Of a DNA stretch of 20,000 nt, positions 1,653 to 19,505 are shown piece by piece. The notes beneath the pieces are model-generated. The model had not been told where the DNA came from, did no database searches, and worked only from the letters and a program-made list of their open reading frames with translations. The position numbers and the translations under genes were made by a program. The DNA comes from an uncultured virus (IMG/VR IMGVR_UViG_3300032307_000957). Taxonomy: Duplodnaviria; Heunggongvirae; Uroviricota; Caudoviricetes. Position 1 is the stretch's first letter, and each line of letters starts with the position of its first letter. The DNA is taken from the IMG/VR virus record IMGVR_UViG_3300032307_000957; one strand, written 5' to 3'.

Positions 1653-1910
1653 ATGTTAATAGATATCATTCAACAAGGACACAGAACAATAACGCTTCTC
1701 GGTAGTAATGATATGTATGTAAATTACTATTGTTGGCAAAATGTAAAAAAAGGAAATTCAAGTAACTGGAAACATAGATCTGGCGAAAGATGGCCGGTCG
1801 TTTTGTCTTATGAATGGGATTATGATTTAATCTTAATACCTTCATCTTTCCAATTTAAGGTTGCCGAAGAAATGTTTCAAGAATATATGTTGTTGAAAGA
1901 AATTATTTAA
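1653..1910 (+). CDS. hypothetical protein, C-terminal LKEII tag
   Basis: ends EYMLLKEII*. Confidence 0.8.
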   Translation: MLIDIIQQGHRTITLLGSNDMYVNYYCWQNVKKGNSSNWKHRSGERWPVVLSYEWDYDLILIPSSFQFKVAEEMFQEYMLLKEII

Positions 1911-1911
1911 T

Positions 1912-2175
1912 ATGACAAAAGTTACATTTATAAACAAAATGTTTATTGTCGGAGATTTTGAAGGAATTGATAATAATAGACATAAAGTTTTTAAACACTA
2001 CCTTTTAAGGGATTTGTTTAAAGGATATATTAGACCGTTTTCAATATTTCCTTTAATTACATTAGTTAATATTGACTACATAGTATGTATTGATCCAAAA
2101 TATACATACAAAGAATGCAACCATATGATAGAAGAAGTTATGAGTGAATTGCTCCTTCTTAAGGAAATAATTTAA
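1912..2175 (+). CDS. hypothetical protein, C-terminal LKEII tag
   Basis: ends ELLLLKEII*; TAATG overlap with next gene. Confidence 0.8.
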   Translation: MTKVTFINKMFIVGDFEGIDNNRHKVFKHYLLRDLFKGYIRPFSIFPLITLVNIDYIVCIDPKYTYKECNHMIEEVMSELLLLKEII

Positions 2176-2480
2176 TGTCAAAAAACATAACACTAAAAAC
2201 AAACATAGAGATAATTCTAAATACAAAAACTAAAGAGTTTATTGATTTTGGAACGCATGGAGAATATAAAACTTATGAAAAAGAGGTTTGTGTAACTATT
2301 GAAGATTTAAAGTTTGATAGATCCAAATATAATGTTTCTGATATTTCATCTGTTAAGATGCCCTTTGTAACATTTGAGAGTTGCATTCTTCCATTTGTTC
2401 AAAATATACCTTACCGTGTTAATAGTGACAATATTTGGTATGGTGATATGGCTAAGTTTATTGTTGATAATTTTCTATAA
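2175..2480 (+). CDS. hypothetical protein
   Basis: coupled start (TAATG), AAGGA upstream. Confidence 0.75.
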   Translation: MSKNITLKTNIEIILNTKTKEFIDFGTHGEYKTYEKEVCVTIEDLKFDRSKYNVSDISSVKMPFVTFESCILPFVQNIPYRVNSDNIWYGDMAKFIVDNFL

Positions 2481-2491
2481 AGGAGTTAATT

Positions 2492-2842
2492 ATGTATAAG
2501 TATATTGTTTTATTTGCAATGATGATGATGGGTTGCTCTTCTACCCAGGTTAATCCTGAAACCCCAAAACCTGATAATGAAAAGGAAGTTGTGACAAAGG
2601 AAGAGGATAGTACATTTAAGAATTATGTTTATGATCGTTTGGTTTCAGTAAAGCTTAAGATTGAAGAGCTTCTGGATGATCCAAAGCTGTTCAGTAAGGA
2701 AAGGTTTTCTTCTATTAGTGATAGAATTAAGCTTTTGGATTCTCTGGAAGAATACAGGAATGTTCTGGGTGACAAGATTATGTTGCTTGTTGCCGAAATC
2801 AAATTGAAGTTTGAAGAGTTAAAGGTTAGGTATAATTCATGA
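2492..2842 (+). CDS. putative lipoprotein
   Basis: AAGGAG SD; signal MYKYIVLFAMMMMG-C15 followed by SSTQ and a low-complexity linker. Confidence 0.7.
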   Translation: MYKYIVLFAMMMMGCSSTQVNPETPKPDNEKEVVTKEEDSTFKNYVYDRLVSVKLKIEELLDDPKLFSKERFSSISDRIKLLDSLEEYRNVLGDKIMLLVAEIKLKFEELKVRYNS

Positions 2843-3417
2843 AAACAAAGAAAAAAAATAGATTCAATAAAGGAACAAAACTTACATATAAAGATGGTTC
2901 AAAATGGCTAATTAAACAAGAATGCTTAAGATTAATATCCGAAGATATATCTAAGTCATTATTGGATCAATTTAATAGTGCTATTTGTAAACCTAATGAA
3001 AAATTATTTCAAGATTTTATAAATGAATATAATTTTGTACCGTGGTTCATCTTTAATGTAAAAATTAGCCAACAATTCATTCAAAAAAACATATCAATTT
3101 TTGATAAAAAATGTTGGGATGCCATCTCTTTATATCAGGAAATGTCAATGTCTTTCATAAATAACAATATAAGTAAATTAAATATTGAATATTTAATGTA
3201 TAATCATAATCTATCTAAAAAAGATAAGATGAAAATATATAGTACATTCTTTAAACAAAAAAATAAAAAGTTCAACAATACACCAAAAACAATTAAATTC
3301 AAGAATAAATTCTTTAGAGTAAATGACAGAATTGTTTCAATAAATTATTTCTGCAATAGAATTGCTCAATGGAACTATTTTTCTAACAATTTTAATTTCA
3401 GTGAATTATACTTCTAA
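2839..3417 (+). CDS. protein with degenerate Trp-repeat (WxxISxxQxLSxxFI) units
   Basis: contains WDAISLYQEMSMSFINNNISKLNIEYLMYN, matching the repeat and cap of the 6058/6351/10010 proteins. Confidence 0.7.
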   Translation: MKTKKKNRFNKGTKLTYKDGSKWLIKQECLRLISEDISKSLLDQFNSAICKPNEKLFQDFINEYNFVPWFIFNVKISQQFIQKNISIFDKKCWDAISLYQEMSMSFINNNISKLNIEYLMYNHNLSKKDKMKIYSTFFKQKNKKFNNTPKTIKFKNKFFRVNDRIVSINYFCNRIAQWNYFSNNFNFSELYF

Positions 3418-3447
3418 ATGTAATTTTTTTTAAAAAGGAATAAAATT

Positions 3448-3774
3448 ATGAAATTCAACAAGAATCTTACAAATCACATTGCAAATCTTGGCTCAATGCA
3501 ATTATTTATGGATGCCGAACCCACAAAGTCTCCGGATGTTGTTTTTGGTTCAAATTATGGGGAGAGGGAATCTTTCCTTATGGTATCCATGGAAGTTATG
3601 AAAGATGAGGATGATAAGGAATTTGGCATAAAATGTTATGTTGAAACGGCAAATGAAAAGAAGGAAGAGGTTTTGCCATTGCATTCAAGCGCGAAGTCTG
3701 TTAAGGATTGGTTCGAAAACAATATCATGGACTTTGGTTTTATTCGTTCTTGGGTAAAGGTTGAAAAGGTTTAA
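3448..3774 (+). CDS. hypothetical protein
   Basis: ORF with AAGGA SD. Confidence 0.8.
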   Translation: MKFNKNLTNHIANLGSMQLFMDAEPTKSPDVVFGSNYGERESFLMVSMEVMKDEDDKEFGIKCYVETANEKKEEVLPLHSSAKSVKDWFENNIMDFGFIRSWVKVEKV

Positions 3775-3776
3775 TT

Positions 3777-4379
3777 ATGACGCTTTTAAATATTGATTGG
3801 GAAAAGAATCCAACTAGTAGATTTACAAAAATTGAAGTTTATGAACACATAAAGGAAATTCTACCTTCTTATAACATTGATCCTAAACACTTAGATTCTC
3901 ATAACTTTATTTGCGGATATAGATTTTTTCCAGCGGGGCCTAATAGGCACTATAAAAAGAAAATAACTGTAGCTTTGGCTAATTACGAATTTCATTGTAC
4001 TGATTGTAATTTTTCCATTCATCTAACTGTAACAGATATAAACAATAAATCTTCTAATCTTGAAATTGAAGAAGTTGAGTATGACAAAAAAGAAATCTCA
4101 ATCTATGCAAAAACAATACATAGCACTATGTTTTCTTTATCCTCTTTAGATTCTAATCTAAAAACCAATGAAGAGTATTATCAAAGTGATATAAACAACT
4201 TGAAGAAACATCCATCAATAAAAAACTTCCCAGGTTTTCAAATTCCTAATCCCCAAATTGATTATGTGGTATTGGTAAAAAAACAAATTAAAGAAATGAA
4301 TTTAGAATTCAATTCATTAAGAATGACATGTGCAGAAGCTAAAAAATTAAATTTAACAAAAACCTTTTTTCAAAAATAA
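3777..4379 (+). CDS. hypothetical protein
   Basis: 200-aa ORF tiled in the operon. Confidence 0.75.
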   Translation: MTLLNIDWEKNPTSRFTKIEVYEHIKEILPSYNIDPKHLDSHNFICGYRFFPAGPNRHYKKKITVALANYEFHCTDCNFSIHLTVTDINNKSSNLEIEEVEYDKKEISIYAKTIHSTMFSLSSLDSNLKTNEEYYQSDINNLKKHPSIKNFPGFQIPNPQIDYVVLVKKQIKEMNLEFNSLRMTCAEAKKLNLTKTFFQK

Positions 4380-4384
4380 ATAAA

Positions 4385-5363: not shown

Positions 5364-5376
5364 TCAGTATAAATAT

Positions 5377-5742: not shown

Positions 5743-5748
5743 AATAAT

Positions 5749-6057
5749 ATGAAATGGAATCTTTGGTTGGATGATCAAATAAACGACCCAGATGCTGAAA
5801 ATAGATGGACTCCGGAAAATTATGTTGGTGCGGAATCTTCCGATGCAGCAATTCATTTAGTGCAAAAGTTTGGTCCACCTGAATTAATGGATCTTGACCA
5901 TGATTTGGGAGAAGGTGATGATGCAATGATTTTTTTAAAATGGTTGTCGGATAATTATTATGACCAAATTCCAGGTTATGTTGTTCATTCTTCAAATCCT
6001 GTAGGAAGAAAAAACATAATATCATTTATGGAATCTTGGAGAAAGAGCATTTATTAG
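5749..6057 (+). CDS. cyclic-phosphate-processing receiver-like domain protein
   Basis: LWLDD...P...DLDHDLG...HSSNPVG motifs characteristic of this stand-alone receiver family. Confidence 0.8.
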   Translation: MKWNLWLDDQINDPDAENRWTPENYVGAESSDAAIHLVQKFGPPELMDLDHDLGEGDDAMIFLKWLSDNYYDQIPGYVVHSSNPVGRKNIISFMESWRKSIY

Positions 6058-6354
6058 ATGCACAGTCTAGACCTTGTACGAACACAATATTCAGAAGAAG
6101 AGTTAGAAGATAACGTTCATTTTTTTGTTAAAAATGATTGGTGGTTTATTTGTTTTTGCCAAGATTTATCAGAGAATTTTATAGAAAAACATGCGGATAA
6201 GGTAAATTGGATTTACATTTCAGAAAAGCAATCTTTATCAGAAGGGTTTATAAAAAGACATATTGAAAAAATTAATATTGAAATTTTAATGTATAATGAT
6301 AGAATTTCTGAAGAAATAAAAAAAGAAATAAAAACATTAAAAGAAATTATATGA
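6058..6354 (+). CDS. Trp-repeat protein (2 x 23-aa repeats), LKEII tag
   Basis: WWFICFCQDLSENFIEKHADKVN / WIYISEKQSLSEGFIKRHIEKIN; ends EIKTLKEII. Confidence 0.85.
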   Translation: MHSLDLVRTQYSEEELEDNVHFFVKNDWWFICFCQDLSENFIEKHADKVNWIYISEKQSLSEGFIKRHIEKINIEILMYNDRISEEIKKEIKTLKEII

Positions 6355-6791
6355 ACCAACACAATTTAGAATTAATTAAAAAACAATATTCCGAAAAAGA
6401 ATTAGAGCAAAATATCAATTTATTTGATGATCGAGATTGGCACTCAATTTCAATTTTCCAAAAACTATCAGAAAAATTTATTGATAAATATTCAGGTAGG
6501 ATTAATTGGGATTGGGTTGCTTCAGAACAAGAATTATCAGAACTTTTTATAAAAAAACATGCGGATAAGGTTAATTGGTATCACGTTTCAATTTACCAAA
6601 AGCTATCAGAAGAATTTATTGAAAAATATTCCGATAAGCTTGATTGGTTATATATTTCTGAATTTCAAAAATTATCTGAAAAATTTATAAAAAAACATAT
6701 AGATAAAATTAACATTAATTTTTTAATGATTAATAATAAAATTTCAAAAAAAATAAAAAAAGAAATTAAATCACTAAAGGAAATTATATGA
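6351..6791 (+). CDS. Trp-repeat protein (4 x 23-aa repeats), LKEII tag
   Basis: four WxxISxxQxLSExFIxKxxDKxN units; ends EIKSLKEII. Confidence 0.85.
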   Translation: MNQHNLELIKKQYSEKELEQNINLFDDRDWHSISIFQKLSEKFIDKYSGRINWDWVASEQELSELFIKKHADKVNWYHVSIYQKLSEEFIEKYSDKLDWLYISEFQKLSEKFIKKHIDKININFLMINNKISKKIKKEIKSLKEII

Positions 6792-7573: not shown

Positions 7574-7582
7574 GGAGTTTTT

Positions 7583-8026: not shown

Positions 8027-8293
8027 ATGTTTTGTTCAGCACTTGTTTATTTTAATAATTTACATAGCATTTGTATACTAAGTCTTCCAAACAAAGCAGA
8101 TGTAAAGTATACAGATATTAAATTCATTGATAAATATCAGTTTATAAATGAAACTTTCTGTTTCCCAGAGTATATATTTCACAGCATTATATTTTCACCT
8201 ATTATAACTCAAATATATAAAATAGAAGGCAAAACAAAAGAAGAGGTTTGGTTGAAAATTCAGGATTTTTTGGTTATTAAAGAAATAATTTAA
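8027..8293 (+). CDS. hypothetical protein, LKEII-type tag
   Basis: ends DFLVIKEII. Confidence 0.75.
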   Translation: MFCSALVYFNNLHSICILSLPNKADVKYTDIKFIDKYQFINETFCFPEYIFHSIIFSPIITQIYKIEGKTKEEVWLKIQDFLVIKEII

Positions 8294-8294: not shown

Positions 8295-8636
8295 ATGTTT
8301 GATTTAAAAGAATACGAAGAAAATATAGTTAAATTAGAATACTTAAATAAGTATTTTATTTCTTTTAAAGACCATTGTTGCGAAATAATGACATACATAT
8401 TAAGCGAATTTTATGTGGACTATTTGTATATTACAATTGCTCAATTAGATCCACTTGTAATACATAAAAGTAAGTATATTATATTTAATGTTCACGGTTC
8501 TGACTTGAAAAGTCTTTCTGGGACTCCTTATGAATATAATGGCGAAAACAAAGCATGTTTTCCTTATGATCTATTATTTGATGAAAATTGGAAAGAAACA
8601 GTAAAAAGAGATGCTTTAATTAAAAGCATAATATAG
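8295..8636 (+). CDS. hypothetical protein, LKEII-type tag
   Basis: ends RDALIKSII. Confidence 0.75.
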   Translation: MFDLKEYEENIVKLEYLNKYFISFKDHCCEIMTYILSEFYVDYLYITIAQLDPLVIHKSKYIIFNVHGSDLKSLSGTPYEYNGENKACFPYDLLFDENWKETVKRDALIKSII

Positions 8637-8883: not shown

Positions 8884-9000
8884 AAGAATTATAAATTATT
8901 ACCAAAAATACAGGTAAATCTTCAACTTCTTACTGTATGAGATTGGTTGATGCTTTAATTGATGATTAGCAATATAGTTAAAGGGAGAAAGTAGGGTTAA

Positions 9001-9130
9001 AGCTGGACGGCGCTAGAGGGTGGGGAAGTGGCTTGCGGCCCCTTCCCTGGTCTGCTATGTTCGGAGCGCTCAGAAGGCTAGCAGGGAGCGAGCAATCGGG
9101 CCCTAAGTCTCCGGTCCTTTCCGGTTCCGT
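9001..9130. other. GC-rich structured intergenic island
   Basis: 83/130 nt G+C (64%) in a very AT-rich window; inverted repeats 9023-9047 and 9052-9084. Confidence 0.75.
9033..9061 (+). promoter_or_regulatory. sigma70-like promoter (TTGCGG-17bp-TATGTT, extended -10 TGc)
   Basis: -35 at 9033-9038, -10 at 9056-9061; same TGCTATG core as the promoters at 12946 and 18599. Confidence 0.55.
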
Positions 9131-9174
9131 GAGTAAAGAAACAAATTATCATTTTATATAATTAAAGGGAAAAC

Positions 9175-9638: not shown

Positions 9639-10013
9639 TTGAATCATATGAAATACTTATTATTTGCAGAGTCTAAAACTAGTAACGTCATCGTTTTGTC
9701 ACCCAGTAAACAAGACGGTCCTTATAATGACTTTTTTATTATTGATAACGGCAAGGTGTCACATAATGAATATAATCAATTAAACATTACACAAGAAAAT
9801 CTATTCATATATTTTGATGAATCATTTTATGATTACTTTATTTATAATGAAAAAACATTAGTGAACAAAAACGAAATTGGTTATGATTATGTATTCATAG
9901 AGATTCCGGAAAGAGATGAGTTTGCTAAAAATTATAAAAACATAATGAAGCACGCAATTGCAAAAGCAAAAAGAGAATTTGCAGAACTGAAATTATTAAA
10001 AGAAATTATATGA
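9639..10013 (+). CDS. hypothetical protein, LKEII tag (start may be ATG 9648)
   Basis: ends ELKLLKEII; ATGA-coupled. Confidence 0.75.
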   Translation: MNHMKYLLFAESKTSNVIVLSPSKQDGPYNDFFIIDNGKVSHNEYNQLNITQENLFIYFDESFYDYFIYNEKTLVNKNEIGYDYVFIEIPERDEFAKNYKNIMKHAIAKAKREFAELKLLKEII

Positions 10014-10396
10014 AACATAATTTAAACTTAATACATGTTAAATATTCCGAAAAAGAATTAGAAGATAATATTCATTTATTTGATAAGTTTGATTGGATGG
10101 ATATTTCTTTCTACCAAACTTTATCTGAAGTATTTATAGAAAAATACTTACATAAGCTTAGTATATATTATATATGTTCACGACAAGACTTATCGGAAAA
10201 ATTCATAGCAAAACATGCAAATAAAATTACTTGGGATAGTATCTGTAAGTACCAGAATCTTTCAGAAAAATTTATACAAAAACATATAGATAAAATAAAT
10301 ATCCACATCAATTTGTTAATGCAAAATAAAAGAATATCATTAAAATTAAAAAACAAAATAAAAAAAGAAATTATATTGCTAAAAGAAATTATTTGA
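10010..10396 (+). CDS. Trp-repeat protein (3 x 23-aa repeats), LKEII tag
   Basis: same N-cap (HNLNL...YSEKELEDNIHLFD) and repeats as 6058/6351; ends EIILLKEII. Confidence 0.85.
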   Translation: MKHNLNLIHVKYSEKELEDNIHLFDKFDWMDISFYQTLSEVFIEKYLHKLSIYYICSRQDLSEKFIAKHANKITWDSICKYQNLSEKFIQKHIDKINIHINLLMQNKRISLKLKNKIKKEIILLKEII

Positions 10397-10406: not shown

Positions 10407-10769
10407 ATGAAATTAAAATATATTTTTGCGAAGTTTTCAGGAAGCACTCATGGGGATGTTGCTTACCTATATATAAAACCCTTGTTCGGGAAAACTGAAG
10501 TTTACTCTCACGAAGGAAACCCAAGATTTATACCTAAAATTGAAATAAGGTGGGTTAATGAATTAGATCCATTTAAATTTTCAGTTAAAGATCTTGATTT
10601 TAATATTTGGTTATCAGAAAAATTTAATGATCATGTAATTCTAAAAACATGGAGTGGACGTGCTCTTGGATTGCATCCATGGATGTTTCCACCTTGCCCT
10701 TCTAAACCTCCAATTAGTAAAAGTGAACAAAATAATGAAGCGCCAATCCAACTAGAGGTTGGAGATTAA
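10407..10769 (+). CDS. hypothetical protein
   Basis: AAAGGA SD, 120 aa. Confidence 0.75.
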   Translation: MKLKYIFAKFSGSTHGDVAYLYIKPLFGKTEVYSHEGNPRFIPKIEIRWVNELDPFKFSVKDLDFNIWLSEKFNDHVILKTWSGRALGLHPWMFPPCPSKPPISKSEQNNEAPIQLEVGD

Positions 10770-11013
10770 TTGGATAATGATTAACAAAACATTCATAGAC
10801 AAACATTATTTATCCATCAAACTTTGCTTTGTACAAATATTATTAATTATATTATATACAATTATTTATTTTGTCTTTCTAAGACCATCTAATTATTTAA
10901 CATTTTCTATTTTTATATACGGTGTAGCGGTACAATCTAAATGGTTGTATTATGATTATAAAAGATATATTGAAGAATATGAAATAAACTTATTGAAAGA
11001 AATCATAGAATGA
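10759..11013 (+). CDS. small two-TM membrane protein, LKEIIE tag (array member 1; start may be ATG 10777)
   Basis: two hydrophobic segments; ends EEYEINLLKEIIE. Confidence 0.8.
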   Translation: MEINWIMINKTFIDKHYLSIKLCFVQILLIILYTIIYFVFLRPSNYLTFSIFIYGVAVQSKWLYYDYKRYIEEYEINLLKEIIE

Positions 11014-11258
11014 AAAGTAAGTTTAAAATATTTTTAAAAGCAACAAAAAAGGATTTAATTTTTATTACCATTCTTTTTATAGCTTTAATTTCTTCTATAG
11101 TTATGTTTATTAATTACTTGTATAATTTGCGGTCAGCTTGGGATCTATATTTGTCTTATATAATAAATATATTAACTTCAACATTTTTCTTATATGGAAT
11201 TTATAAAGATAACATTAAACAAGAAGAAATTGATTTACTGAAAGAAATAATAGAATGA
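11010..11258 (+). CDS. small two-TM membrane protein, LKEIIE tag (member 2)
   Basis: MKSKFKIFLKAT N-terminus; ends QEEIDLLKEIIE. Confidence 0.8.
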   Translation: MKSKFKIFLKATKKDLIFITILFIALISSIVMFINYLYNLRSAWDLYLSYIINILTSTFFLYGIYKDNIKQEEIDLLKEIIE

Positions 11259-11512
11259 AAAATAAAATAAAAATATTTTTAAAAGCAACGGCAAAGCTTT
11301 ATATTAACATTCCTTTAATATTTTCAACTTTTATTATACATCTAATAATTAATAATATAATTTATTATTATAAAGATAATTACAATGTCGATTGTTTTTT
11401 GGAATTAATGATTATTCCAATAATAATATTGCATTTGATTTATATTTATATTTTAGAATTCAAACGGATTGAAGAAGAAGGAATGAATGCGCTAAGAGAA
11501 ATAATAGAATAA
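11255..11512 (+). CDS. small two-TM membrane protein, LREIIE tag (member 3)
   Basis: MKNKIKIFLKAT N-terminus; ends EEGMNALREIIE. Confidence 0.8.
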   Translation: MKNKIKIFLKATAKLYINIPLIFSTFIIHLIINNIIYYYKDNYNVDCFLELMIIPIIILHLIYIYILEFKRIEEEGMNALREIIE

Positions 11513-11787
11513 TGTTTAAAATTAAAACAATATTAAAAGCAATACTAATCACAATTAAAGAACAAGGATATTTATACTTTATAAATATAGTTTCATATAT
11601 TGCAAGCATTATTCATCTCTATATATCTGATTTACCAGACGCCCCACATCATGTTAGAGCGTTTTGTATTGTTGCATGGTTTGTTATAATGTGTATTTCA
11701 TGCATTATGACGGCAAACATATTGTTATTAATCATTAATAAAATTAAACAAATTCAAATAGAATTACTTATGGAGATTATAGAATGA
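11512..11787 (+). CDS. small two-TM membrane protein, LMEIIE tag (member 4)
   Basis: MFKIKTILKA N-terminus; ends QIELLMEIIE. Confidence 0.8.
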   Translation: MFKIKTILKAILITIKEQGYLYFINIVSYIASIIHLYISDLPDAPHHVRAFCIVAWFVIMCISCIMTANILLLIINKIKQIQIELLMEIIE

Positions 11788-12056
11788 TGGCTAAAATTAA
11801 AAAGTTTTTCAATGTAATGAGCTTTATATTTAAAGAACAACCATCAGGTATTTTGGTTATTACTATTCTATATTCCGCAAGTGCTTTTCATGTATTCTTA
11901 GCAAAAGAAAATAAAGTAAATAACATATACATTACATTATCTATATTGTTTTTAGGAATACTTTATGGAATATTGGCAACAAAAATAACAATTAAAGGAT
12001 TTAAAGAGGCATATGAAGATTATGAAATTAACTTATTGAAAGAAATTATAGAATGA
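11784..12056 (+). CDS. small two-TM membrane protein, LKEIIE tag (member 5)
   Basis: ends EDYEINLLKEIIE. Confidence 0.8.
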   Translation: MMAKIKKFFNVMSFIFKEQPSGILVITILYSASAFHVFLAKENKVNNIYITLSILFLGILYGILATKITIKGFKEAYEDYEINLLKEIIE

Positions 12057-12325
12057 ATTACAAAACAAAAACAATTATAAAAATTTATAACAAAAACAAA
12101 TATACAACGTTATATTCTCTATTTCTTACATTATACATGTTTTTTATTTTCTATTTTGTCGTTACATCTATTCATTGGGAAGTATTATCACTTCTTAGTA
12201 TCTTGTCATTTTTCTTGTTAGCATTACTTTTGATTACATCAATATCTCCATTATTTTATTTGTATAAAATTTATAAATTACAAATGAAAGAAGAAGAGAT
12301 AGATCTACTTAAGGAGATAATATGA
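12053..12325 (+). CDS. small two-TM membrane protein, LKEII tag (member 6)
   Basis: ends EEEIDLLKEII. Confidence 0.8.
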   Translation: MNYKTKTIIKIYNKNKYTTLYSLFLTLYMFFIFYFVVTSIHWEVLSLLSILSFFLLALLLITSISPLFYLYKIYKLQMKEEEIDLLKEII

Positions 12326-12480: not shown

Positions 12481-12890
12481 TTAAAAAAAGAGAAGGTAGA
12501 TTCTTACTTAAATAATTTAAACAAAACTTAATTAATAATTTAAATGGAAATTATGCAAAATTCAATGTAACAGAAGAGGGTTGGGTTACATTAGAAACAA
12601 ATGCATTTTGTATTCCTGATTATGGTTATTTTGCTTATAGTTATGATTTATTTGATTGTGAATCATTTTTAGATATGCATTATCACATAACCAACTCAGA
12701 TATTTTGAATGATAAAGATTTAAAAGAATTTATTGATGAAGTAACTAATCTTAAAGAAATAATTGGGGCAAATTACCCTTTTAATATTGAAGGTTTTGAA
12801 ATTAATTCCAAAGAAGAATTTGATTATTTTGTCCTTGTATTGGAAGATATGCTTGCTAAGCAACTTGGGTTGACAGAATATTGTTCTTAA
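12477..12890 (+). pseudogene. hypothetical gene with a lesion near the 5' end (ORF track shows only 12675-12890)
   Basis: Coupled ATG at 12477 is in frame with the 12675 ORF, but TAA occurs at 12513-12515; the frame is open from 12516 to 12890. Confidence 0.55.
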
Positions 12891-12975: not shown

Positions 12976-13021
12976 CTCCCTGTATCAATTGGATGCTAAC
13001 CCTAAACTATAAATAAACATT

Positions 13022-13309
13022 ATGGAAAAATTAAGATTACTTTACCACAACAACATCATTGTTAAGAGAGCCAAATCATACATTCAAGATTATTTGTTTT
13101 CTCTTAAATTCAAGAATGTTTTACATTTAAAACGTGAATATCCATATGGCATTTTAAAGCTTTTCATTAAACATGATTCATACTATTATAATATAAATAT
13201 TTCTGGCAGTTGGACCGGGTTATCCATTATGATAAACGGATACACTTTACCAAGAAAAACCAAGTCTTTTGATGATGCTTTTAAAGAAATTATGATTTAT
13301 TTGGGTTAA
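13022..13309 (+). CDS. hypothetical protein (degenerate FKEIM near C-terminus)
   Basis: first ORF after the promoter. Confidence 0.7.
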   Translation: MEKLRLLYHNNIIVKRAKSYIQDYLFSLKFKNVLHLKREYPYGILKLFIKHDSYYYNINISGSWTGLSIMINGYTLPRKTKSFDDAFKEIMIYLG

Positions 13310-13311
13310 TT

Positions 13312-13941
13312 ATGAATATCAATTTTATTTTGAAACAAGATACGGAACCAAGAAATCGCGGCTTTGTGGTACACGAATGTCGTGCAACTATTGATAATGA
13401 AGAGGTTGCTTATTTAAAAGCAGCTCTTGTTCCAAGCGAAAACTTTAAAAGACTTTATAAATCAATAGTTGATTTCCAGTATAAACTTGGAGGTATGTGC
13501 TTTTTACCTTACTATGGTGAGCTTCAAAATGAAATGTCTGTTCATGAAATTTTTTCTAATGAAGAAATAGTTCATTATTATAATGAATCTGGGTATGGAT
13601 GTTACAATAAAGTTAACTCGTTTAATGAATTGATAAATTTGTTTTATTGTGAGTATGGAAAATCGTTCAAGCAATTTAAAAATTGTCAAGTAGATAATCC
13701 TTATGTTGATTATTCTTATGTAAAAGAACCCTTTAGAAGAAAAGGTATTGGTGAAAGACTTTACATTGAAACAAGCAAATTCATGAAAGAACTTGGTTAT
13801 AAAGGATTAAGGCAATCAACTCTCCAAAGTAATGATGCAAAAGCTTTCTGGGAAAGTCTAAAAAATAAAGGTTTGGCAAAAAAGCTAAACATTCACCCAA
13901 AACAAAAATGGTCTAAACAAGAAATATTTTATATCGGTTAA
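13312..13941 (+). CDS. GNAT-family acetyltransferase
   Basis: acetyl-CoA-binding motif A: VDYSYVKEPFRRKGIGERLY; later QSNDAKAFWE. Confidence 0.8.
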   Translation: MNINFILKQDTEPRNRGFVVHECRATIDNEEVAYLKAALVPSENFKRLYKSIVDFQYKLGGMCFLPYYGELQNEMSVHEIFSNEEIVHYYNESGYGCYNKVNSFNELINLFYCEYGKSFKQFKNCQVDNPYVDYSYVKEPFRRKGIGERLYIETSKFMKELGYKGLRQSTLQSNDAKAFWESLKNKGLAKKLNIHPKQKWSKQEIFYIG

Positions 13942-13949
13942 ATCGTATT

Positions 13950-14266
13950 ATGAAAAGAAAAATCTGCATACTTGGAAATAAAGTAACTTTAAATTTTAAA
14001 CCGGAAAATTTAGTTAATTATGGCAGAATGGTAACATTTACAATTGGACCATACGCTTTGGTATTTAAAGACCAGAAATCTTTTACATTGACATATATGT
14101 TTATAACGAGCTAAGGTTTAGCAGGAGATGTTTATCAATTCCAGCTCTTGAAGAAACTATAAATAACTTTTTTATTGAAGATTATCAAAAATTAAAAGAA
14201 AGAATTAAATCACTTGATAATTTTTGTAATATGGAAAATTTGATTTCAATAAAGGAAATTATATGA
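13950..14266 (+). pseudogene. frameshifted paralog of 14263/14589 with IKEII tag, not in ORF track
   Basis: ATG 13950 frame stops at TAA 14112-14114; the -1 frame from about 14084 reads YIDIYV...ENLISIKEII* to 14266. Confidence 0.7.
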
Positions 14267-14592
14267 AAAAGACAACCTTGGTTATTTTTGGCAAAGAATA
14301 TATATTCAAAGATCATAATGCTAACGAACCGAATGACATTACTAGATTTACTTATATTGAGCAATTAGATTACGAAATCTATTTCCATTATAGAAAAGGT
14401 CAAGAGAATGAATTTGAGTGGGGCGTGGACGATTATTATGGTGAAAGAAAAACTTTTCATAAAAAAGCCGAACTTATAAATTTTCTAGAAAAAGAAATAA
14501 TAGCAAAATATCAACTTAGATTAAAGCAATTAAATGACTTTGAAGAGTTCATCGGTTTGAAAGATTGTCTTGCATTAAAAGAAATTATATGA
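14263..14592 (+). CDS. hypothetical protein, LKEII tag
   Basis: ends DCLALKEII; ATGA-coupled at both ends. Confidence 0.8.
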   Translation: MKKTTLVIFGKEYIFKDHNANEPNDITRFTYIEQLDYEIYFHYRKGQENEFEWGVDDYYGERKTFHKKAELINFLEKEIIAKYQLRLKQLNDFEEFIGLKDCLALKEII

Positions 14593-14855
14593 AAATAAAA
14601 ATATTTGAAACAGAGTATGAAGTTTTAGAAAACAAACCAGTTTACATTGGAAATATCGAATTAGAATTGGGTCGGGATAAAGTATGGTATGTAGATGTAG
14701 ACGGTGAATGCCATGATTTTGACACAATCGAAGAAACAAAAGAGTTTATAGAAGAACAAGTTTATTTGTCTTATAAAGATCATGAAAATATAATGCTTAC
14801 AATTGAAAAAATAAAAGGATTTAAAGAATATTTAACAATAAAGGAAATTATATGA
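14589..14855 (+). CDS. hypothetical protein, IKEII tag (start moved to ATG 14589)
   Basis: ATGA overlap at 14589; ends EYLTIKEII. Confidence 0.8.
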   Translation: MKIKIFETEYEVLENKPVYIGNIELELGRDKVWYVDVDGECHDFDTIEETKEFIEEQVYLSYKDHENIMLTIEKIKGFKEYLTIKEII

Positions 14856-15055
14856 AATTTTACACATGCCCAAAATGCAAAACAATCCATAACAACAAAA
14901 TCAATTCAATTGCCGGAGTTGCAGAAAGTTGCCCAGCTTGCAATTACACTTACAATGCAGTTGCATCCGGGTTCTTTGATAAAGATACGGGAAACTTTCC
15001 TTCTTTTAAGCTTCTAAGAGAAGCAAAGGTTAAGAAGGGAATTTGGGTGGCTTAA
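14852..15055 (+). CDS. small zinc-ribbon protein
   Basis: CPKC...CPAC. Confidence 0.75.
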   Translation: MKFYTCPKCKTIHNNKINSIAGVAESCPACNYTYNAVASGFFDKDTGNFPSFKLLREAKVKKGIWVA

Positions 15056-15348
15056 TGAATTTTTTAACATCATTCGGTTTAACAATTGCTTTTCTTATTT
15101 TTGTTTTCTTTATTTTACCAATTATATTTGTTTGTTTATTGGAATTATTTGAAAACCTTTTCATAGAACTTTTCCCTTTAAATATTAAAAGAAAATATTA
15201 TTTTAGATCATGGGGAAAATCTTTATTTAAAGATACTCTTTTTGCTTTACAAGTCCTTATTTTTAAGTCATCTTTAAGAAGAAGGATGTCAGTTTTAACC
15301 GATAAAGAAAGAGAAGATTACATAAAGTCAATCGAGGTATACAAATGA
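15055..15348 (+). CDS. membrane protein (start moved to ATG 15055)
   Basis: TAATG overlap; N-terminal hydrophobic helix. Confidence 0.7.
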   Translation: MNFLTSFGLTIAFLIFVFFILPIIFVCLLELFENLFIELFPLNIKRKYYFRSWGKSLFKDTLFALQVLIFKSSLRRRMSVLTDKEREDYIKSIEVYK

Positions 15349-15683
15349 TTAGAAATTGCGTTGTATGTAATGAAGAATATGATGATCAGTCAAGAGCAAA
15401 AATGGAAGCTGGTGGTTTAATTACCACATGCCCAGATTGTAGCGAAGATAATGTTGTAAAATATGTTGGTTTCCAGGCTGCTGATGGCAAACAAAGCCAA
15501 GTAACAATCATGCATTTTGATAACGAAAATGACAAAAAAGATTACATTAAATTCTGGAAGAATAACACAGGATTTAATAAAGGAAAGTCTTGTCAATTAG
15601 GGCAACATCTTTCCACAACCCCAGGTATCAAGTTTAAGACCGTTTCTGGCTTTAAACCAACAAACCATAAAGGTAAATCATGA
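15345..15683 (+). CDS. zinc-ribbon protein
   Basis: CVVC...CPDC; GAGGT SD. Confidence 0.75.
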   Translation: MIRNCVVCNEEYDDQSRAKMEAGGLITTCPDCSEDNVVKYVGFQAADGKQSQVTIMHFDNENDKKDYIKFWKNNTGFNKGKSCQLGQHLSTTPGIKFKTVSGFKPTNHKGKS

Positions 15684-16045
15684 ACAAAGAGAATATAGAT
15701 AAGCTTAAATCTTATGGAATATTCAATATTGATATGGGTAGAACCTTTGAATGTGATGATGGATGGTTTGAAATTTTAGTTGAATTTTCAGAAAATATCT
15801 CATCCATAAAAGAATCTTTAGGTATAGAATACGAAGTTACTACAGTAAAAGAAAAGCTTGGAAAACTAACTATATATCCATATTCTGACCATAAAGAAAT
15901 CAATGATTTAATTAATCTTGCCACAAATAAAAGCAGAATAACATGTGAAATTTGTGGAGATCACGGAAAAATAAGAAATACTAGATGGATAAGATCATTA
16001 TGCGAAAAACATTATCAAGAGCGTTTAAAGTATGAAAATGAGTAA
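15680..16045 (+). CDS. conserved phage hypothetical protein (ECxxGW...VKEKxGxL...CExCG family)
   Basis: FECDDGWFEIL, VKEKLGKL, TCEICG...WIRSLCEKH motifs. Confidence 0.8.
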   Translation: MNKENIDKLKSYGIFNIDMGRTFECDDGWFEILVEFSENISSIKESLGIEYEVTTVKEKLGKLTIYPYSDHKEINDLINLATNKSRITCEICGDHGKIRNTRWIRSLCEKHYQERLKYENE

Positions 16046-16256
16046 TGAAAAAGTAATTGTGGTCTGGAAAGAAAATACACTAATCAAAAACGGTTTAGAT
16101 CGTATTATTTTTCATATAGCAAATAAAAACTCTGGATATTTAAGGGAATATAGAAAAGACTTGCACGAAGATTATATTATCTTTCCAATAGAAACCCCCT
16201 TGGAAGACATAAGATCATCTTTAAATCAATACAGATTATTGAAAGAGATTATATGA
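16032..16256 (+). CDS. small 'WK..N' family protein, LKEII tag
   Basis: VVWKEN...IIF..NK..Y...YIIFPIETPLEDI...YRLLKEII. Confidence 0.8.
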   Translation: MKMSNEKVIVVWKENTLIKNGLDRIIFHIANKNSGYLREYRKDLHEDYIIFPIETPLEDIRSSLNQYRLLKEII

Positions 16257-16489
16257 ATTCAAATAAAGAAAAGTTTTACTTCATTTGGAAAAGCAATGCG
16301 GATCTTAATCATAATGATTTACATCATATTATCTTTTGCATTGTAAACAAAGATCGTAGTTACTTTAACTGCGTAGATTCATTATGGGACCCAATAGATA
16401 ACTATATTATATTTGATTCAAATACACCTATAGAGGACATAGAAAAAGAATTAAAATCATTTATTGATTTAAGAGAAATAATAAGTTAG
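16253..16489 (+). CDS. small 'WK..N' family protein, LREIIS tag
   Basis: FIWKSN...IIFCIVNK..Y...YIIFDSNTPIEDI...FIDLREIIS. Confidence 0.8.
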   Translation: MNSNKEKFYFIWKSNADLNHNDLHHIIFCIVNKDRSYFNCVDSLWDPIDNYIIFDSNTPIEDIEKELKSFIDLREIIS

Positions 16490-16497
16490 GTTATTAT

Positions 16498-16752
16498 ATG
16501 CAAGTAAATATTGAAACAACCTTAATAGAATTTCTTAAAAGACATTCCTTTTCTGAATTTAAAAGGCAAATCCAATCTCAATCAAAAAACAATAATTATA
16601 TAGAAAAAATAAAAGAAATAATTTTGTTGGAAGAAATTATTGGCATGCCAGATTCGGGAACAATATTATTTTTCGATGAAAAATTGGTATATAATAATTT
16701 TAGTAAAAATATATTATTTTCTGCTTTTAATTATATTTTGAATGATTCATAA
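16498..16752 (+). CDS. hypothetical protein with internal tag-like EIILLEEIIG
   Basis: ORF track. Confidence 0.65.
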   Translation: MQVNIETTLIEFLKRHSFSEFKRQIQSQSKNNNYIEKIKEIILLEEIIGMPDSGTILFFDEKLVYNNFSKNILFSAFNYILNDS

Positions 16753-16769
16753 TTAAGAAAATAAATTGT

Positions 16770-16985
16770 ATGATAAGAGAAATTTATATATGGAAAAATA
16801 ATGGTTATCTACTCAGTAGTAATATTGAAGGTTTAATATATGGCATTTTAAATGCCACCTCAGATTATATGCAAGATAATCTAAGGTATGGTTATGATCA
16901 ATATATTGTTGTAAAATCAAAACTTGAAAAGGATGATTTAAGAAAAGCTTTGGAAGAATTAATGCTTTTAAAGGAGATCATATAA
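16770..16985 (+). CDS. small 'WK..N' family protein, LKEII tag
   Basis: YIWKNN...LIYGILN...YIVV...ELMLLKEII. Confidence 0.8.
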   Translation: MIREIYIWKNNGYLLSSNIEGLIYGILNATSDYMQDNLRYGYDQYIVVKSKLEKDDLRKALEELMLLKEII

Positions 16986-17230
16986 TGTCAGGATATCATA
17001 TAGCAAAAATAAAAAAAGGAAAACTTGGAGAACCATCAAAAATCCAAGAAGAATTGGATGAGTTAATTGATGCTCTTAATCAAAATAATAAAATCATGGC
17101 TCTTGTAGAGTTATCAGATCTTTATGGGGCAATCAAAGCCGTTGCAGAATCTTTAGGTTCAAATATGCAAGATTTAAAGATAATGAGCGAGGCAACAGAA
17201 AGAGCATTTAAAAATGGAAAAAGAAAGTAA
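16985..17230 (+). CDS. MazG-like (all-alpha) nucleotide pyrophosphohydrolase
   Basis: KIQEELDELIDA...ALVELSDLYGAI fits the EExxE...ExxD metal-binding motif; AAGGAG SD. Confidence 0.75.
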   Translation: MSGYHIAKIKKGKLGEPSKIQEELDELIDALNQNNKIMALVELSDLYGAIKAVAESLGSNMQDLKIMSEATERAFKNGKRK

Positions 17231-18020
17231 TTTTATATTACCACAATTAATTAATTATAATTTAATTAGTGATGCTATTAATTGGTACCAAAACAATGGT
17301 TTTGAATATATAGAAGTCCCATGGAAAGTTAGCAAAGAAGCAATGAGTGTTACTTTTCCAAATTCAAAAAAGGGTTTAGTTGGTTCTGCTGAACAATCAT
17401 TTATTCAAATGATGTTGGATGGCAAATTAAAAAATGGAAAATATGTTGCTTGTACTCCTTGTTTTAGAAATGAAGTAGTTGATGAGTATCATTATCCATA
17501 TTTTATGAAAGTAGAATTGATTGATTTTGGATCATCTAGTTATAACCAAAACTTGCTTTTATCTAAAAAATTCTTCGAGTCTAGACTTCACGTTAAATCA
17601 GAAATTAAGTTTAAAGAATTGAAAACAAAAGATGGTTTTGATTTATTAATGTCTTTTGATAGTAAAAATGAACTTGAAGTTGGTTCTTATGGTGTAAGAA
17701 AATATAAAGATTTCATTTGGTCATATGGAACAGGTATAGCAGAACCAAGGTTTTCAAAACACCTTTTAAATTTAAACTGTGGGTTTAAATATATAAACAT
17801 TTATAAAGGTTACAGGATTGAAAATAAATTATCTTGTGATAATATAAAAAAAGGTATTTTAAATGAAATTATTCATCTAAAAAACTTAAATTATAATTAT
17901 ACTCACGAATACTTTTCAAACAAAAAAGAGCGCCATTCAATATCAATACCTGCATCTCTTGATTTTGATGAAGTTTGCGCTGAAATTGATACAATAGTTT
18001 CATTAAAGGATATTATATGA
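17214..18020 (+). CDS. class II aminoacyl-tRNA synthetase-like catalytic domain (no anticodon domain) with C-terminal extension ending in LKDII
   Basis: motif 1 GFEYIEVP, motif 2 TPCFRNE...FMKVE, EVGSYG, motif 3 YGTGIAEPR. Confidence 0.8.
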   Translation: MEKESNFILPQLINYNLISDAINWYQNNGFEYIEVPWKVSKEAMSVTFPNSKKGLVGSAEQSFIQMMLDGKLKNGKYVACTPCFRNEVVDEYHYPYFMKVELIDFGSSSYNQNLLLSKKFFESRLHVKSEIKFKELKTKDGFDLLMSFDSKNELEVGSYGVRKYKDFIWSYGTGIAEPRFSKHLLNLNCGFKYINIYKGYRIENKLSCDNIKKGILNEIIHLKNLNYNYTHEYFSNKKERHSISIPASLDFDEVCAEIDTIVSLKDII

Positions 18021-18292
18021 AAAAAGATGTTAAAATAAGGATAGTTATTTGTAAGAAATATAATTTTGTTTTTCAAAATCAAAATAAGAATGTTTTGAAA
18101 GATGAAATAATGGGAGCAAAAGAAAAGTGCAAAAATAACTCAGAACATGCTTACTTAAGCAATTACAGAATTGATTTTTCTAAAACCTGTTATTATTTAG
18201 ATTTTGATATTTCAACTCCAACAGAAAAAATTATTAAAGAATTCTACAAAGAATCAAATAGATTAAAAGAATTGAGAGAAATTATATGTTAA
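18017..18292 (+). CDS. hypothetical protein related to the 16032 family, LREIIC tag
   Basis: YYLDFDISTPTEKI...RLKELREIIC. Confidence 0.75.
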   Translation: MKKDVKIRIVICKKYNFVFQNQNKNVLKDEIMGAKEKCKNNSEHAYLSNYRIDFSKTCYYLDFDISTPTEKIIKEFYKESNRLKELREIIC

Positions 18293-18573
18293 TTTATGTA
18301 AATGACACTAGCAAATGTAAATATTTGTGCTGGGTAAACATTCAAAAAGATACATTTGTAATTACAAATTACAAACTTGCAATTAAAAGAATAAAAGAAA
18401 AACATGATTCTTTTTTTATAAAAAACAATAATTTATCAAAAAAATATTTAAAAGAAATTGAATCTAACCCTTTTAACAAGGATGGAGTTATCTTAGTTTT
18501 CAATGGAGATAATCCATTTGAAGAGATCAAAAAAGAAATAGATAATTATATTTCATTATATGAAATAATATAG
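18286..18573 (+). CDS. hypothetical protein related to the 16032 family, LYEII tag
   Basis: ILVFNGDNPFEEIKKEIDNYISLYEII. Confidence 0.75.
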   Translation: MLIYVNDTSKCKYLCWVNIQKDTFVITNYKLAIKRIKEKHDSFFIKNNNLSKKYLKEIESNPFNKDGVILVFNGDNPFEEIKKEIDNYISLYEII

Positions 18574-18598
18574 CAATTGTTTTTTTAAAAACATAAAC

Positions 18599-18627
18599 TT
18601 GACAAGCCGCGATGACCATGCTATGGT
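18599..18627 (+). promoter_or_regulatory. sigma70-like promoter (TTGACA-17bp-TATGGT, extended -10 TGc)
   Basis: -35 at 18599-18604, TGCTATGGT at 18619-18627, intergenic. Confidence 0.8.
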
Positions 18628-18650
18628 GAGAGGACAAATGGGTATCCCTT

Positions 18651-19004
18651 ATGAAAAACATATCATTTAAAGCCAGAACCAATGGAAAAGGATTTTGGTC
18701 AAATACAGTTGCAGAAGTTAATATAGTTGGTTATGAATTAACTCATTTAACATGTTATCGTAATGACTATTATTCATATACAAAGTTATATTTTGATAAC
18801 AGTTGGAATACTAAAGAGTATGGTTTGATTTATACTGACCCTCTCTTCATTAAAGATGTTACACTAAACCTTAAACCAATTCTAAAATTTAAATCAATTG
18901 ATTATACCGAAAATGGTATGCAAGGTAATAATTATGTAAGCTTAGAGTGTGATTTTGATAAAAAAACCTATGAAGAGTTAAAAACTTTAATTGATATTAT
19001 TTAG
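18651..19004 (+). CDS. conserved phage hypothetical protein, LIDII tag
   Basis: TNGKGFWS...GLIYTDP...YTENGMQGNNYVS; ends ELKTLIDII. Confidence 0.8.
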   Translation: MKNISFKARTNGKGFWSNTVAEVNIVGYELTHLTCYRNDYYSYTKLYFDNSWNTKEYGLIYTDPLFIKDVTLNLKPILKFKSIDYTENGMQGNNYVSLECDFDKKTYEELKTLIDII

Positions 19005-19055
19005 TGAAGAAAAAATGTATTATACATCAACAAAAACAAAAGAAAGAAGTTAAAT

Positions 19056-19505
19056 ATGATTTACGAAGTAAAAATTACAGAATCTGGCCAAAATCAATAT
19101 ATTGAAGTTCCTAACGAGCTAAATCAAACAATGTGTATCCATGTAATGGAATATTATCCAAATGGAAAAGAGCACAATTACAAATTTGCAGAAGTTCTTG
19201 GAAAGATTGACGAATCCCTTGTTGACAAGGAAGATATAATTTCTTTTGCTGAATTTATTCACCCCAATCTTTTTTTTAATGAAACGGAAGCTACAGACGA
19301 ACAAGGCAACCCTAATCCTGATAAGGGTAAGATATTTATTGATCAAGAAGTATTTCAATTGGTGAATAAGAACTTTATTCAAGAGATGTTTTATTTGTGG
19401 TCAAGTTTACCATCAATTTCTGTTCAACAATATCTTGACAAGATTGAAATGCAAGATTTAGATCAGATTTATGATGATGCCGTTTTACAGGATATTGTTG
19501 AGTAA
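19056..19505 (+). CDS. acidic hypothetical protein, degenerate tag (VLQDIVE)
   Basis: 149-aa ORF, TAATG-coupled to next start. Confidence 0.75.
   Translation: MIYEVKITESGQNQYIEVPNELNQTMCIHVMEYYPNGKEHNYKFAEVLGKIDESLVDKEDIISFAEFIHPNLFFNETEATDEQGNPNPDKGKIFIDQEVFQLVNKNFIQEMFYLWSSLPSISVQQYLDKIEMQDLDQIYDDAVLQDIVE

Follow-up and report, generated by a model that had tools for sequence, protein, structure and literature searches.

Degrons, adaptor tethers and encapsulation or targeting peptides are all short terminal tags by which many different proteins engage a single partner, a central organising principle of cells. Tails read by AAA+ proteins include the C-terminal ClpX-binding peptide of SspB, the ssrA-type C-terminal degrons, and the MIM helices of ESCRT-III that bind the MIT domain of Vps4. 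In microcompartments and encapsulins, a terminal peptide (an encapsulation peptide and a cargo-loading peptide, respectively) on unrelated cargo plugs into one shell. Ankyrin-repeat families of poxviruses and giant viruses end in a constant PRANC/F-box-like domain of about 50 residues, and the capsid-targeting sequence of phage T4 is an N-terminal peptide on internal proteins packaged in the head, in a system whose prohead protease follows the cleavage rule L/I-x-E. Large phages encode hundreds of small orphan "early" proteins, about which, to our knowledge, almost nothing is known. Here we describe a C-terminal tail of the LKEII type that is carried by about a third of the small accessory proteins encoded in a 20,000-nucleotide (nt) stretch of the uncultured caudoviricete virus IMGVR_UViG_3300032307_000957 (the whole of this stretch is referred to as the window), and by proteins of a second phage. 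We tentatively favour, with a confidence just short of even, the reading that selection maintains the tail as a dual-coded C-terminal helix through which the carriers dock on, or are recognised by, one cytoplasmic partner. Terminal docking motifs as such are already known; what is new here is a short C-terminal linear motif that is dual-coded with a translational coupling junction.

All 25 stop codons that a preliminary description of this DNA had listed as ends of tagged genes are in place. Twenty of these ends read [LI][KR][ED]-I-I followed by no or one further residue, and the full nine-residue pattern that had been given for all of them, [ED]-hydrophobic-x-x-[LI]-[KR]-[ED]-I-I, holds for just 14, with a hydrophobic residue at -8 (counting back from the second Ile as -1) in 23. 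Four ends are weak or variant members (8636, LIKSII; 11787, LMEIIE; 18573, LYEII; 19004, LIDII), and the one at 19505 (LQDIVE) is a non-member despite its inclusion in the list. The end at 14266 does carry the tail, in a frame without a start codon that is the 3' part of a frameshifted gene beginning at 13950. An extra residue (E, S or C) follows II in seven tails of the window, so that the position of the free carboxylate would not need to be fixed.

The tail is enriched at C-termini, a check that the preliminary description had proposed: the 57 non-overlapping genes of the window (6,123 residues) contain it 19 times at the end and twice internally. No copy is present in the three minus-strand frames of the window, and the strict pattern ends 20 of the 63 plus-strand open reading frames (ORFs) of at least 40 amino acids (aa) versus none of the 19 minus-strand ones. 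Genes ending in II number 16 of 57, where 0.64 would be expected from the Ile frequency. The genes of the window and of the second phage were chosen heuristically (greedy selection from the first ATG, minimum length 40 aa), and a gene is called coupled where the stop-to-ATG gap is -20 to +3. The carrier genes and the two internal copies are as follows, with ORFs given as ORFans (orphan ORFs) where so classed, TM standing for transmembrane, SD for Shine-Dalgarno and aaRS for aminoacyl-tRNA synthetase.

1653..1910 (+), 85-aa ORFan, ...EYMLLKEII, full nine-residue pattern; stop TAA, next ATG 1 nt on
1912..2175 (+), 87-aa ORFan, ...ELLLLKEII; TAATG junction
6058..6354 (+), alpha-solenoid ("Trp-repeat") member, phrog_3532, ...EIKTLKEII; ATGA junction
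6351..6791 (+), alpha-solenoid member, 146 aa, ...EIKSLKEII; tail inside the C-terminal model helix 133-145
8027..8293 (+), 88-aa ORFan, ...DFLVIKEII
8295..8636 (+), 113-aa ORFan, degenerate ...ALIKSII; uncoupled, following gene with its own SD
9648..10013 (+), 121-aa ORFan, ...ELKLLKEII; ATGA junction to a solenoid gene
10010..10396 (+), alpha-solenoid member, ...EIILLKEII; uncoupled, TGA and then the next gene's AAGGAATATTATG
10759..12325 (+), six two-TM paralogues in tandem, ending at 11013, 11258, 11512, 11787, 12056 and 12325; tails E-I-x-L-L-K-E-I-I(-E)
12750..12764 (+), internal copy ...EVTNLKEII followed by Gly, within the gene 12675-12890
13950..14266 (+), frameshifted gene; the frame 13950-14114 stops, and the start-less frame 14114-14266 ends ...NLISIKEII at an ATGA junction
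14263..14592 (+), 109-aa ORFan, ...DCLALKEII
14589..14855 (+), 88-aa ORFan, ...EYLTIKEII
16032..16256 (+), "WK" member, 74 aa, ...YRLLKEII; an orthologue at 91% identity retains LLKEII
16253..16489 (+), "WK" member, ...FIDLREIIS; uncoupled, gap of 8 nt
16609..16641 (+), internal copies IKEII-LLEEII followed by Gly-Met, within the gene 16498-16752
16770..16985 (+), "WK" member, ...ELMLLKEII; TAATG junction
17214..18020 (+), class II aaRS-like core (residues 12-182) with an 86-aa extension, phrog_4806, ...IVSLKDII
18017..18292 (+), 91-aa ORFan, ...KELREIIC; upstream frame one codon longer, position of the downstream ATG kept
18286..18573 (+), 95-aa ORFan, variant ...YISLYEII; uncoupled, 77-nt gap with a promoter-like site
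18651..19004 (+), 117-aa ORFan, variant ...ELKTLIDII; uncoupled, gap of 51 nt
19056..19505 (+), 149-aa ORFan, ...AVLQDIVE; non-member

Both internal sites look like former gene ends at which the stop was lost and two small genes were fused. Judged by their N-termini, the frameshifted gene at 13950-14266 and its two right-hand neighbours may be three tandem paralogues.

As the preliminary description held, the carriers belong to apparently unrelated classes, with at least 12-15 groups between which neither BLAST nor hidden Markov model (HMM) comparison without the tail detects any similarity. BLAST joins only three paralogue sets among them, namely three solenoid, six two-TM and three "WK" genes. 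A single hidden protein family embracing all carriers was considered and rejected, as the "WK" profile without its last eight residues matched no other carrier, a comparison of limited sensitivity for proteins this short.

A pattern scan of viral contigs for the tail returned 35 stretches, 13 of which lie on one contig (G001; 115.6 kb, estimated to be 27% complete). A further contig (G002) overlaps its end at 99.99% identity over 33.7 kb, and the two were merged into a sequence of 133,257 bp, the second phage, referred to here as phage B. The solenoid family, at about 45-60% protein identity, is all that it has in common with the window, and it is therefore a different phage. On G001 the strict tail ends 32 of 212 plus-strand ORFs versus none of 119 on the minus strand, and in phage B it occurs 33 times terminally versus three times internally, with 0-1 copies in the minus-strand frames of window and phage B. 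Among the 186 genes of phage B, 43 end in II (1.46 expected), 33 carry the strict tag, and 44 are tagged when looser L-x-[ED]-I-I tails are included. Its carriers comprise, among others, an M78 peptidase (…VDEII), a ClpP homologue (…DDIIE) and a nucleotidyltransferase with a PolyA_pol head domain (…ILKEII). The tags of phage B are confined to the first 100 kb (44 of 160 genes, versus none of 26 beyond; p = 8e-4), and the block beyond 100 kb includes the terminase and very large ORFs.

Four loci on other large viral contigs with an aaRS-like gene contain no tag in 365 ORFs, and about 100 loci outside G001 from the viral and metagenome pattern scans have at most one seeded match each. The metagenome pattern scan showed no new multi-tag contig among the matches listed, and a viral scan with a 981-aa protein of phage B returned just its two self copies and one fragment at 97% identity.

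The tail is constrained as a peptide. The synonymous codon variation along it that the preliminary description reported is real, and we set aside the period-3 information content on carriers chosen by their peptide in favour of a frame-blind DNA scan, which takes sites with up to three mismatches to a 15-mer consensus and leaves every position free to vary. Third codon positions are far less conserved than the first and second: at the stop-followed sites, mismatches at positions 1/2/3 number 8/6/25 in the window (p = 2e-4) and 21/12/64 in phage B (p = 4e-11), so that third positions hold 64-66% of all mismatches. At L(-5), K(-4), E(-3) and I(-2) the codons are used as in the genomic background, and neither AAG nor GAG is in overall excess; AAG at K(-4), for example, is used in 6 of 16 cases in the window (22% background, p = 0.22) and in 4 of 32 in phage B (17%, p = 0.64). 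The one codon enriched over background is ATA at I(-1), as needed for an ATGA overlap; this NNA-UGA effect has been described across bacteria (PMC7246954).

The constraint extends upstream as a helix pattern, evaluated in 37 tagged proteins outside the solenoid family at positions that had not been used to select carriers. In these proteins, position -8 is hydrophobic in 86% versus 40% (p = 1e-7), position -9 is acidic in 57% versus 12% (p = 2e-8) and hydrophobic in 3% versus 34%, and position -12 is acidic in 49% versus 18%. The codons for -8, -9 and -12 lie 24-36 nt ahead of the stop, beyond any ribosome-binding site (RBS). The amphipathic helix proposed in the preliminary description is thus borne out, and it reaches back to at least -9/-12, with hydrophobic residues at -8, -5, -2 and -1 and acidic ones at -9 and -3.

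The tail also keeps a fixed position with respect to the stop codon, 0-1 codon away, whereas the distance from the purine tract to the next ATG is 5, 8, 10 or about 20 nt, or there is none. The same peptide is found at five geometries (ATGA, TAATG, TAA-N-ATG, ATGA after one additional residue, and uncoupled), and the gap between stop and ATG in tagged genes spans -7 to +10 in the window and reaches 574 nt in phage B. At the ends 8636, 10396, 18573 and 19004 the tail does persist without coupling, across gaps of 19, 10, 77 and 51 nt, and a promoter-like site does follow 18573 (at 18599-18627). Loss of the motif where nothing is coupled was not seen, with 2-4 uncoupled cases in the window and 8-12 in phage B. 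Nor does coupling by itself impose the tail: other tails stand at 15 of the coupled junctions of the window and at 68 of those of phage B, the former carrying GG-containing SDs (AAAGGT, AAGGAG). A genetic code in which TGA is read as sense was considered for these overlaps and rejected, since at the junctions inspected a ribosome reading through the TGA would run into another stop 3-4 codons on, and all three stops end genes.

Among the carriers, the alpha-solenoid family is greatly expanded, with at least 36 copies in the 133 kb of phage B and four in the window, including an untagged relative at 2839-3417. Its repeat signature is W..IS..Q.LSE.FI.K..DK..W (phrog_3532), found at 6058-6791, 10010-10396 and 2839-3417 of the window and at L048-L053 of the second phage. 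The model of a solenoid protein (predicted local distance difference test, pLDDT, 96) is a run of short helix pairs that ends in a 13-residue helix (133-145) holding the tail, with a pLDDT of 95 for residues 131-140 and about 80 for the last six. A Foldseek search of this model against the PDB gave nothing at E<=0.001, and VIA-align returned generic repeat proteins only (ankyrin, HEAT, PPR and designed repeats; Z<=5.1). A homodimer prediction for tail-mediated pairing of the solenoid protein scored 0.00 with the verdict "no answer", and weighs neither way. The tail is present in only 15 of the 120 solenoid-repeat homologues listed, all of which belong to the short "MKKHNLDL…" phage subfamily, and is thus a lineage-specific addition; paralogues within that lineage retain it without coupling (gaps of 9 to 574 nt) despite a protein divergence of about 40-50% elsewhere. 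In many metagenomic proteins the solenoid repeat is also fused to DUF7666 or RING domains.

Similarly, among the 120 listed homologues of the aaRS-like protein the tail occurs in one, the window's own. The listed homologues are typically about 180 aa long, and the window's protein has the 86-aa extension, ending SLKDII. About 10 of the 120 have a C-terminal domain that ends …TKRAFxxGxR; the analogue of this ending in the window (…ATERAFKNGKRK) belongs to a separate upstream gene, 16985-17230, with a weak PRA-PH/MazG-like match, which suggests a fission or an altered domain order between this gene and the aaRS-like one at 17214-18020. The "WK" protein has only two close relatives among 5.8 billion proteins, one of them truncated ahead of the tail, and its model (mean pLDDT 68) suggests a β-α-β-α-β-α arrangement with the tail in the last helix (57-73), the most confident part. 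In the two-TM paralogues, a Lys-rich N-terminus precedes the two hydrophobic segments, and all that follows these is an acidic tail of about 18 residues, on which the BLAST matches among the paralogues rest. So short a stretch after the second TM segment leaves little for a helix to pack on in cis, and by the positive-inside rule it would face the cytoplasm.

Several observations weigh against a docking or recognition helix, most of them through a link to translation that the preliminary description underplayed, in that the tail DNA is RBS-like, tags are enriched at overlapping junctions and a synonymous G is tuned. The consensus DNA of the tail, TTA AAA GAA ATT ATA TGA, resembles the phage's own intergenic RBS, TTAAAGG(A/T)AA…ATG. 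Of the strict tags, 17 of 19 in the window and 25 of 33 in phage B are coupled; put the other way, tags are found on 17 of 32 coupled versus 2 of 24 uncoupled genes in the window (odds ratio 12.5, p = 5e-4; untagged genes 15 coupled, 22 uncoupled) and on 25 of 93 versus 8 of 92 in phage B (odds ratio 3.9, p = 0.002; untagged 68 and 84), with labels that are noisy because the gene sets are heuristic (e.g., end 98447). Pairing energies were computed with a presumed long anti-SD tail, …CCUCCUUUCU, which may differ from that of the host; tag junctions then have a median of -4.9 kcal/mol versus -4.8 to -5.1 at other coupled junctions and -1.5 to -1.7 at random internal positions. A synonymous G (Leu TTG or Lys AAG) is present in 14 of 19 coupled tags in the window (38% in the background of internal [LIVM][KR] dicodons, p = 0.002) and in 19 of 32 in phage B (28%, p = 2e-4); for uncoupled tags the counts are 0 of 4 and 6 of 12, and the contrast between coupled and uncoupled has p = 0.014 in the window, 0.73 in phage B and 0.08 pooled. 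The synonymous sites are tuned to an SD-like G at coupled genes, and the element is therefore dual-coded. Beyond translation, many carriers are paralogous, so that tag counts overstate their independence, and they represent roughly 12-15 unrelated groups and not 25 independent events. The tag-bearing genomes are just two, both incomplete. The confidently modelled tail helix of the solenoid fold suggests a part of that fold and not a free peptide, and the tail may act in cis there. No common partner was found for the tail, so that of the protein-level address label put forward in the preliminary description the peptide constraint stands, with third positions varying and the tail kept where nothing is coupled, and the partner is missing.

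A possible, if on balance unlikely, alternative is that the coupling junction in the RNA, with its purine-rich SD-like tract, A/T spacer and ATGA, comes first and K-E-I-I is simply its in-frame reading, with no trans partner; the tail would then have spread through duplication or recombination of gene ends, and the upstream helix would be a secondary adaptation that makes an imposed tail harmless. The coupled-junction enrichment, the RBS-like consensus and the pairing energies equal to those of real RBSs under the long anti-SD tail all fit such a junction, as do the TTG and AAG variants, which give a well-placed GAAAG or AAAGGA at an aligned spacing of 3-4 and whose G is the one enriched in coupled tags, and both LMEII variants, which use ATG GAG and so provide GGAG. 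Single LKEII-ATGA ends on unrelated contigs point the same way, from a search that targeted exactly that DNA and hence gives no rate. However, it is the distance of the peptide to the stop that is constant and not that to the ATG, and an RBS spacer has no reason to remain A-T-x-A-T-x (Ile-Ile), given that the spacers of uncoupled RBSs vary. The tract reads AAAGAA without GG in 13 of 24 window tails and in most phage B tails, and with an E. coli-type anti-SD the phage B tags pair no better than random sequence (median -0.9). In the plain AAAGAAA (AGAAA register), the aligned spacing is -1 versus 2-6 for genes with their own RBS, about 7 nt too near the ATG. The three-base period under frame-blind ascertainment without overall enrichment of AAG or GAG, the pattern at -8, -9 and -12 outside the junction, and the uncoupled solenoid genes that keep their tails across such divergence are likewise not what a junction by itself would leave behind.

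A cis structural helix, in which the tail would complete a capping or packing helix as its final turn and so stabilise the carrier's own fold or protect its end, with LKEII as the best ATGA-compatible helix ending reached by convergence, strikes us as quite unlikely. It agrees with the well-modelled C-terminal helix 133-145 of the solenoid, with the "WK" protein, whose last helix stands out within a model of low overall confidence, and with the many soluble carriers whose tail sequences read as strand, turn and long terminal helix. Packing within unrelated folds would, however, admit LL, LF, VL and the like, so that a uniform [ED]-I-I over at least 12 groups is unexpected; the two-TM carriers have no soluble domain to pack on, and the wider solenoid relatives lack the LKEII tail. 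Still less probable, and in our view a long shot, is a recombination joint, in which conserved DNA at gene boundaries serves to shuffle or duplicate small gene cassettes and the peptide is a passenger; the promoter/stem-loop cassettes of T4-type phages reportedly shuffle gene cassettes at such DNA joints. The junction DNA of the phage B solenoids is near-identical and includes the start of the next gene (TGAAAAAACATAATTTAGAT), and the two internal "fossil" tails that mark former gene ends, together with the tandem gene arrays, are in keeping with such a joint. Against it, unrelated carriers are identical over just about 12-15 nt, broken at synonymous sites, the downstream flank is family-specific, and changes of junction geometry keep the peptide and not the DNA.

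On the docking or recognition reading, the uniformity of [ED]-I-I over unrelated folds, membrane proteins among them, would be best explained by recognition in trans. The tail is a lineage-specific short linear motif, [ED]-hydrophobic-x-x-[LI]-x-[ED]-I-I, placed 0-1 residue ahead of the stop, which the phage lineage adds to unrelated non-structural proteins (soluble ORFans, two-TM proteins, alpha-solenoids and a few enzymes). One common cytoplasmic partner would read its hydrophobic face (-8, -5, -2, -1), on either side of which lie E(-9), K(-4) and E(-3). The codons of the tail also serve, and are in part tuned, to couple the next gene, for which these bases would provide a purine-rich SD-like tract, a spacer and a restart at ATGA. 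The virion shell or packaging route suggested in the preliminary description is disfavoured, since none of the 26 genes in the terminase block of phage B is tagged and six carriers are two-TM membrane proteins; judged from gene classes and regions, it is the least likely destination.

As to the partner, an AAA+ unfoldase/protease system, with the tail as a degron or adaptor-docking peptide, is a rather unlikely identification taken singly, which we nevertheless rank first. Two ClpP homologues and a YjoB/Cdc48-like AAA ATPase are among the gene products of phage B. These belong to a proteostasis set that also contains trigger factor, a DnaJ-like protein and peptide deformylase, beside an RNA-repair set of two RNA ligases, a Thg1-like protein and the PolyA_pol-head nucleotidyltransferase.

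Phage B, proteostasis and RNA-repair entry: L048, 18133-18717; L049, 18304-18924; L050, 17176-18477; L051, 14450-15646; L052, 8951-9838; L051, 4386-4898

Phage B has three AAA proteins, with best matches to Cdc48, VCP and YjoB, and ClpX is absent from the matches listed. A scaffold or hub that co-localises the carriers comes at the lower end of the likelihood given to the protease system, and a zipper-like, tail-to-tail association nucleated at the membrane by the two-TM carriers is distinctly unlikely; the a/d-like spacing of -8, -5 and -1, with E(-9) and K(-4), would fit a g-e' ion pair of such a zipper. In a speculative extension, to which we give as little probability as to the zipper, the phages would possess an addressing system of their own, in which the LKEII helix docks a quarter to a third of the accessory proteins on one machine, most attractively the phage AAA+/ClpP protease, and the roughly 40 hypervariable solenoids are adaptors that hand host proteins (e.g., defence proteins) over for destruction. 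If true, this would be the bacterial-virus counterpart of the poxvirus ankyrin/F-box strategy, with tag codons that double as a restart signal. Manipulation of proteolysis has been discussed for jumbo phages that possess ClpP or ClpS, in an article that contains neither "degron" nor "C-terminal tail" (PMC7824862). A full-text literature search for "LKEII" gave nothing relevant, as judged from titles and abstract openings.

Compared with the tails read by AAA+ proteins, the LKEII tail is similar in that a short C-terminal peptide or helix on diverse proteins would serve one machine, and phage B has ClpP and an AAA ATPase, but its sequence matches none of the SspB, ssrA or MIM motifs. With encapsulation peptides it shares a terminal amphipathic helix common to unrelated carriers, with a hydrophobic spacing like that of the Pdu LLxxII-type helices. 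Unlike their cargo, the tag carriers include membrane proteins, and the terminase block of phage B is untagged; bacterial microcompartment or encapsulin shell genes were not found among the 59 window proteins or the 69 large phage B ORFs scanned, both genomes being incomplete. The poxvirus ankyrin families offer a parallel in their expanded, fast-diverging alpha-solenoids with a constant short C-terminal element (at least 36 copies in phage B and four in the window), but here the constant part is 9-13 residues long, there is no homology, the host is bacterial, and the tail is also found on non-repeat proteins. As in the T4 capsid-targeting sequence, a short peptide is common to unrelated small phage proteins, and L-K-E formally fits L-x-E; the LKEII tag, however, is C-terminal and on non-structural and membrane proteins.

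Translational coupling junctions are alike in that most tags end at ATGA or TAATG with ATA as the last codon, an SD-like purine tract and an enrichment of SD-forming G. They differ in that the tail is conserved as peptide rather than DNA, is anchored to the stop, extends to -12, persists uncoupled and is absent from the other coupled junctions of both phages. A PIP-box or clamp-binding tail, for which we take the consensus to be Q-x-x-[LIM]-x-x-[FY]-[FY] or QL[SD]LF, was rejected as a candidate, since the LKEII tail, although similar in its L(-5)…I(-2)I(-1) spacing, lacks both a Gln at -8 and an aromatic pair.

A docking tail on a quarter to a third of the small orphan proteins would give one experimental handle to their hub. 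The case also illustrates how a single 15-18-nt stretch can be under selection at two levels, as a peptide and as a translational coupling signal. It also calls for caution among motif hunters and annotators, as such tails risk dismissal as RBS artefacts.

The window is A+T-rich, with a G+C content per kb of 22-32%, and contains about 58 tightly packed plus-strand genes, the majority of them under 150 codons and nearly all without a Pfam or PHROG family. Besides the other families named in this text, the only recognisable ones are a protein with a cREC_REC (cyclic-phosphate processing receiver) domain (E=2e-17) and a weak GNAT acetyltransferase match, at 5749-6057 and 13312-13941. Searches of the window for tRNAs and Rfam families found none, and a DNA similarity search with window positions 13000-19500 against 50,697 phage records gave zero matches. 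The cluster of the aaRS-like protein includes a contig of up to 74,711 bp, and relatives of its gene occur on viral contigs of 135-433 kb; the window's few relatives would thus point to very large uncultured phages.

The sole clear gene on the minus strand of the window, at 19596-20000 and cut by the window end, is TnpB/Cas12f1-like with a TNB domain, and two terminator-like hairpins lie at 19671-19685 and 19734-19755. An intergenic, G+C-rich stretch of about 160 nt stands out amid the A+T-rich DNA at 8990-9150; an Rfam search as permissive as E<=1 gives no match to it, shuffled sequences are predicted to fold just as well (z=0.97), and it could be a mobile-element RNA or a remnant. The upstream 20 nt of the unlinked genes at 1330 and 8656 share a common RBS stretch, AAAGAAAGGTAATT(T)AAAAATG, which is complementary to what we take to be a long 16S tail ending …CCUUUCU and so hints at the anti-SD of the host.

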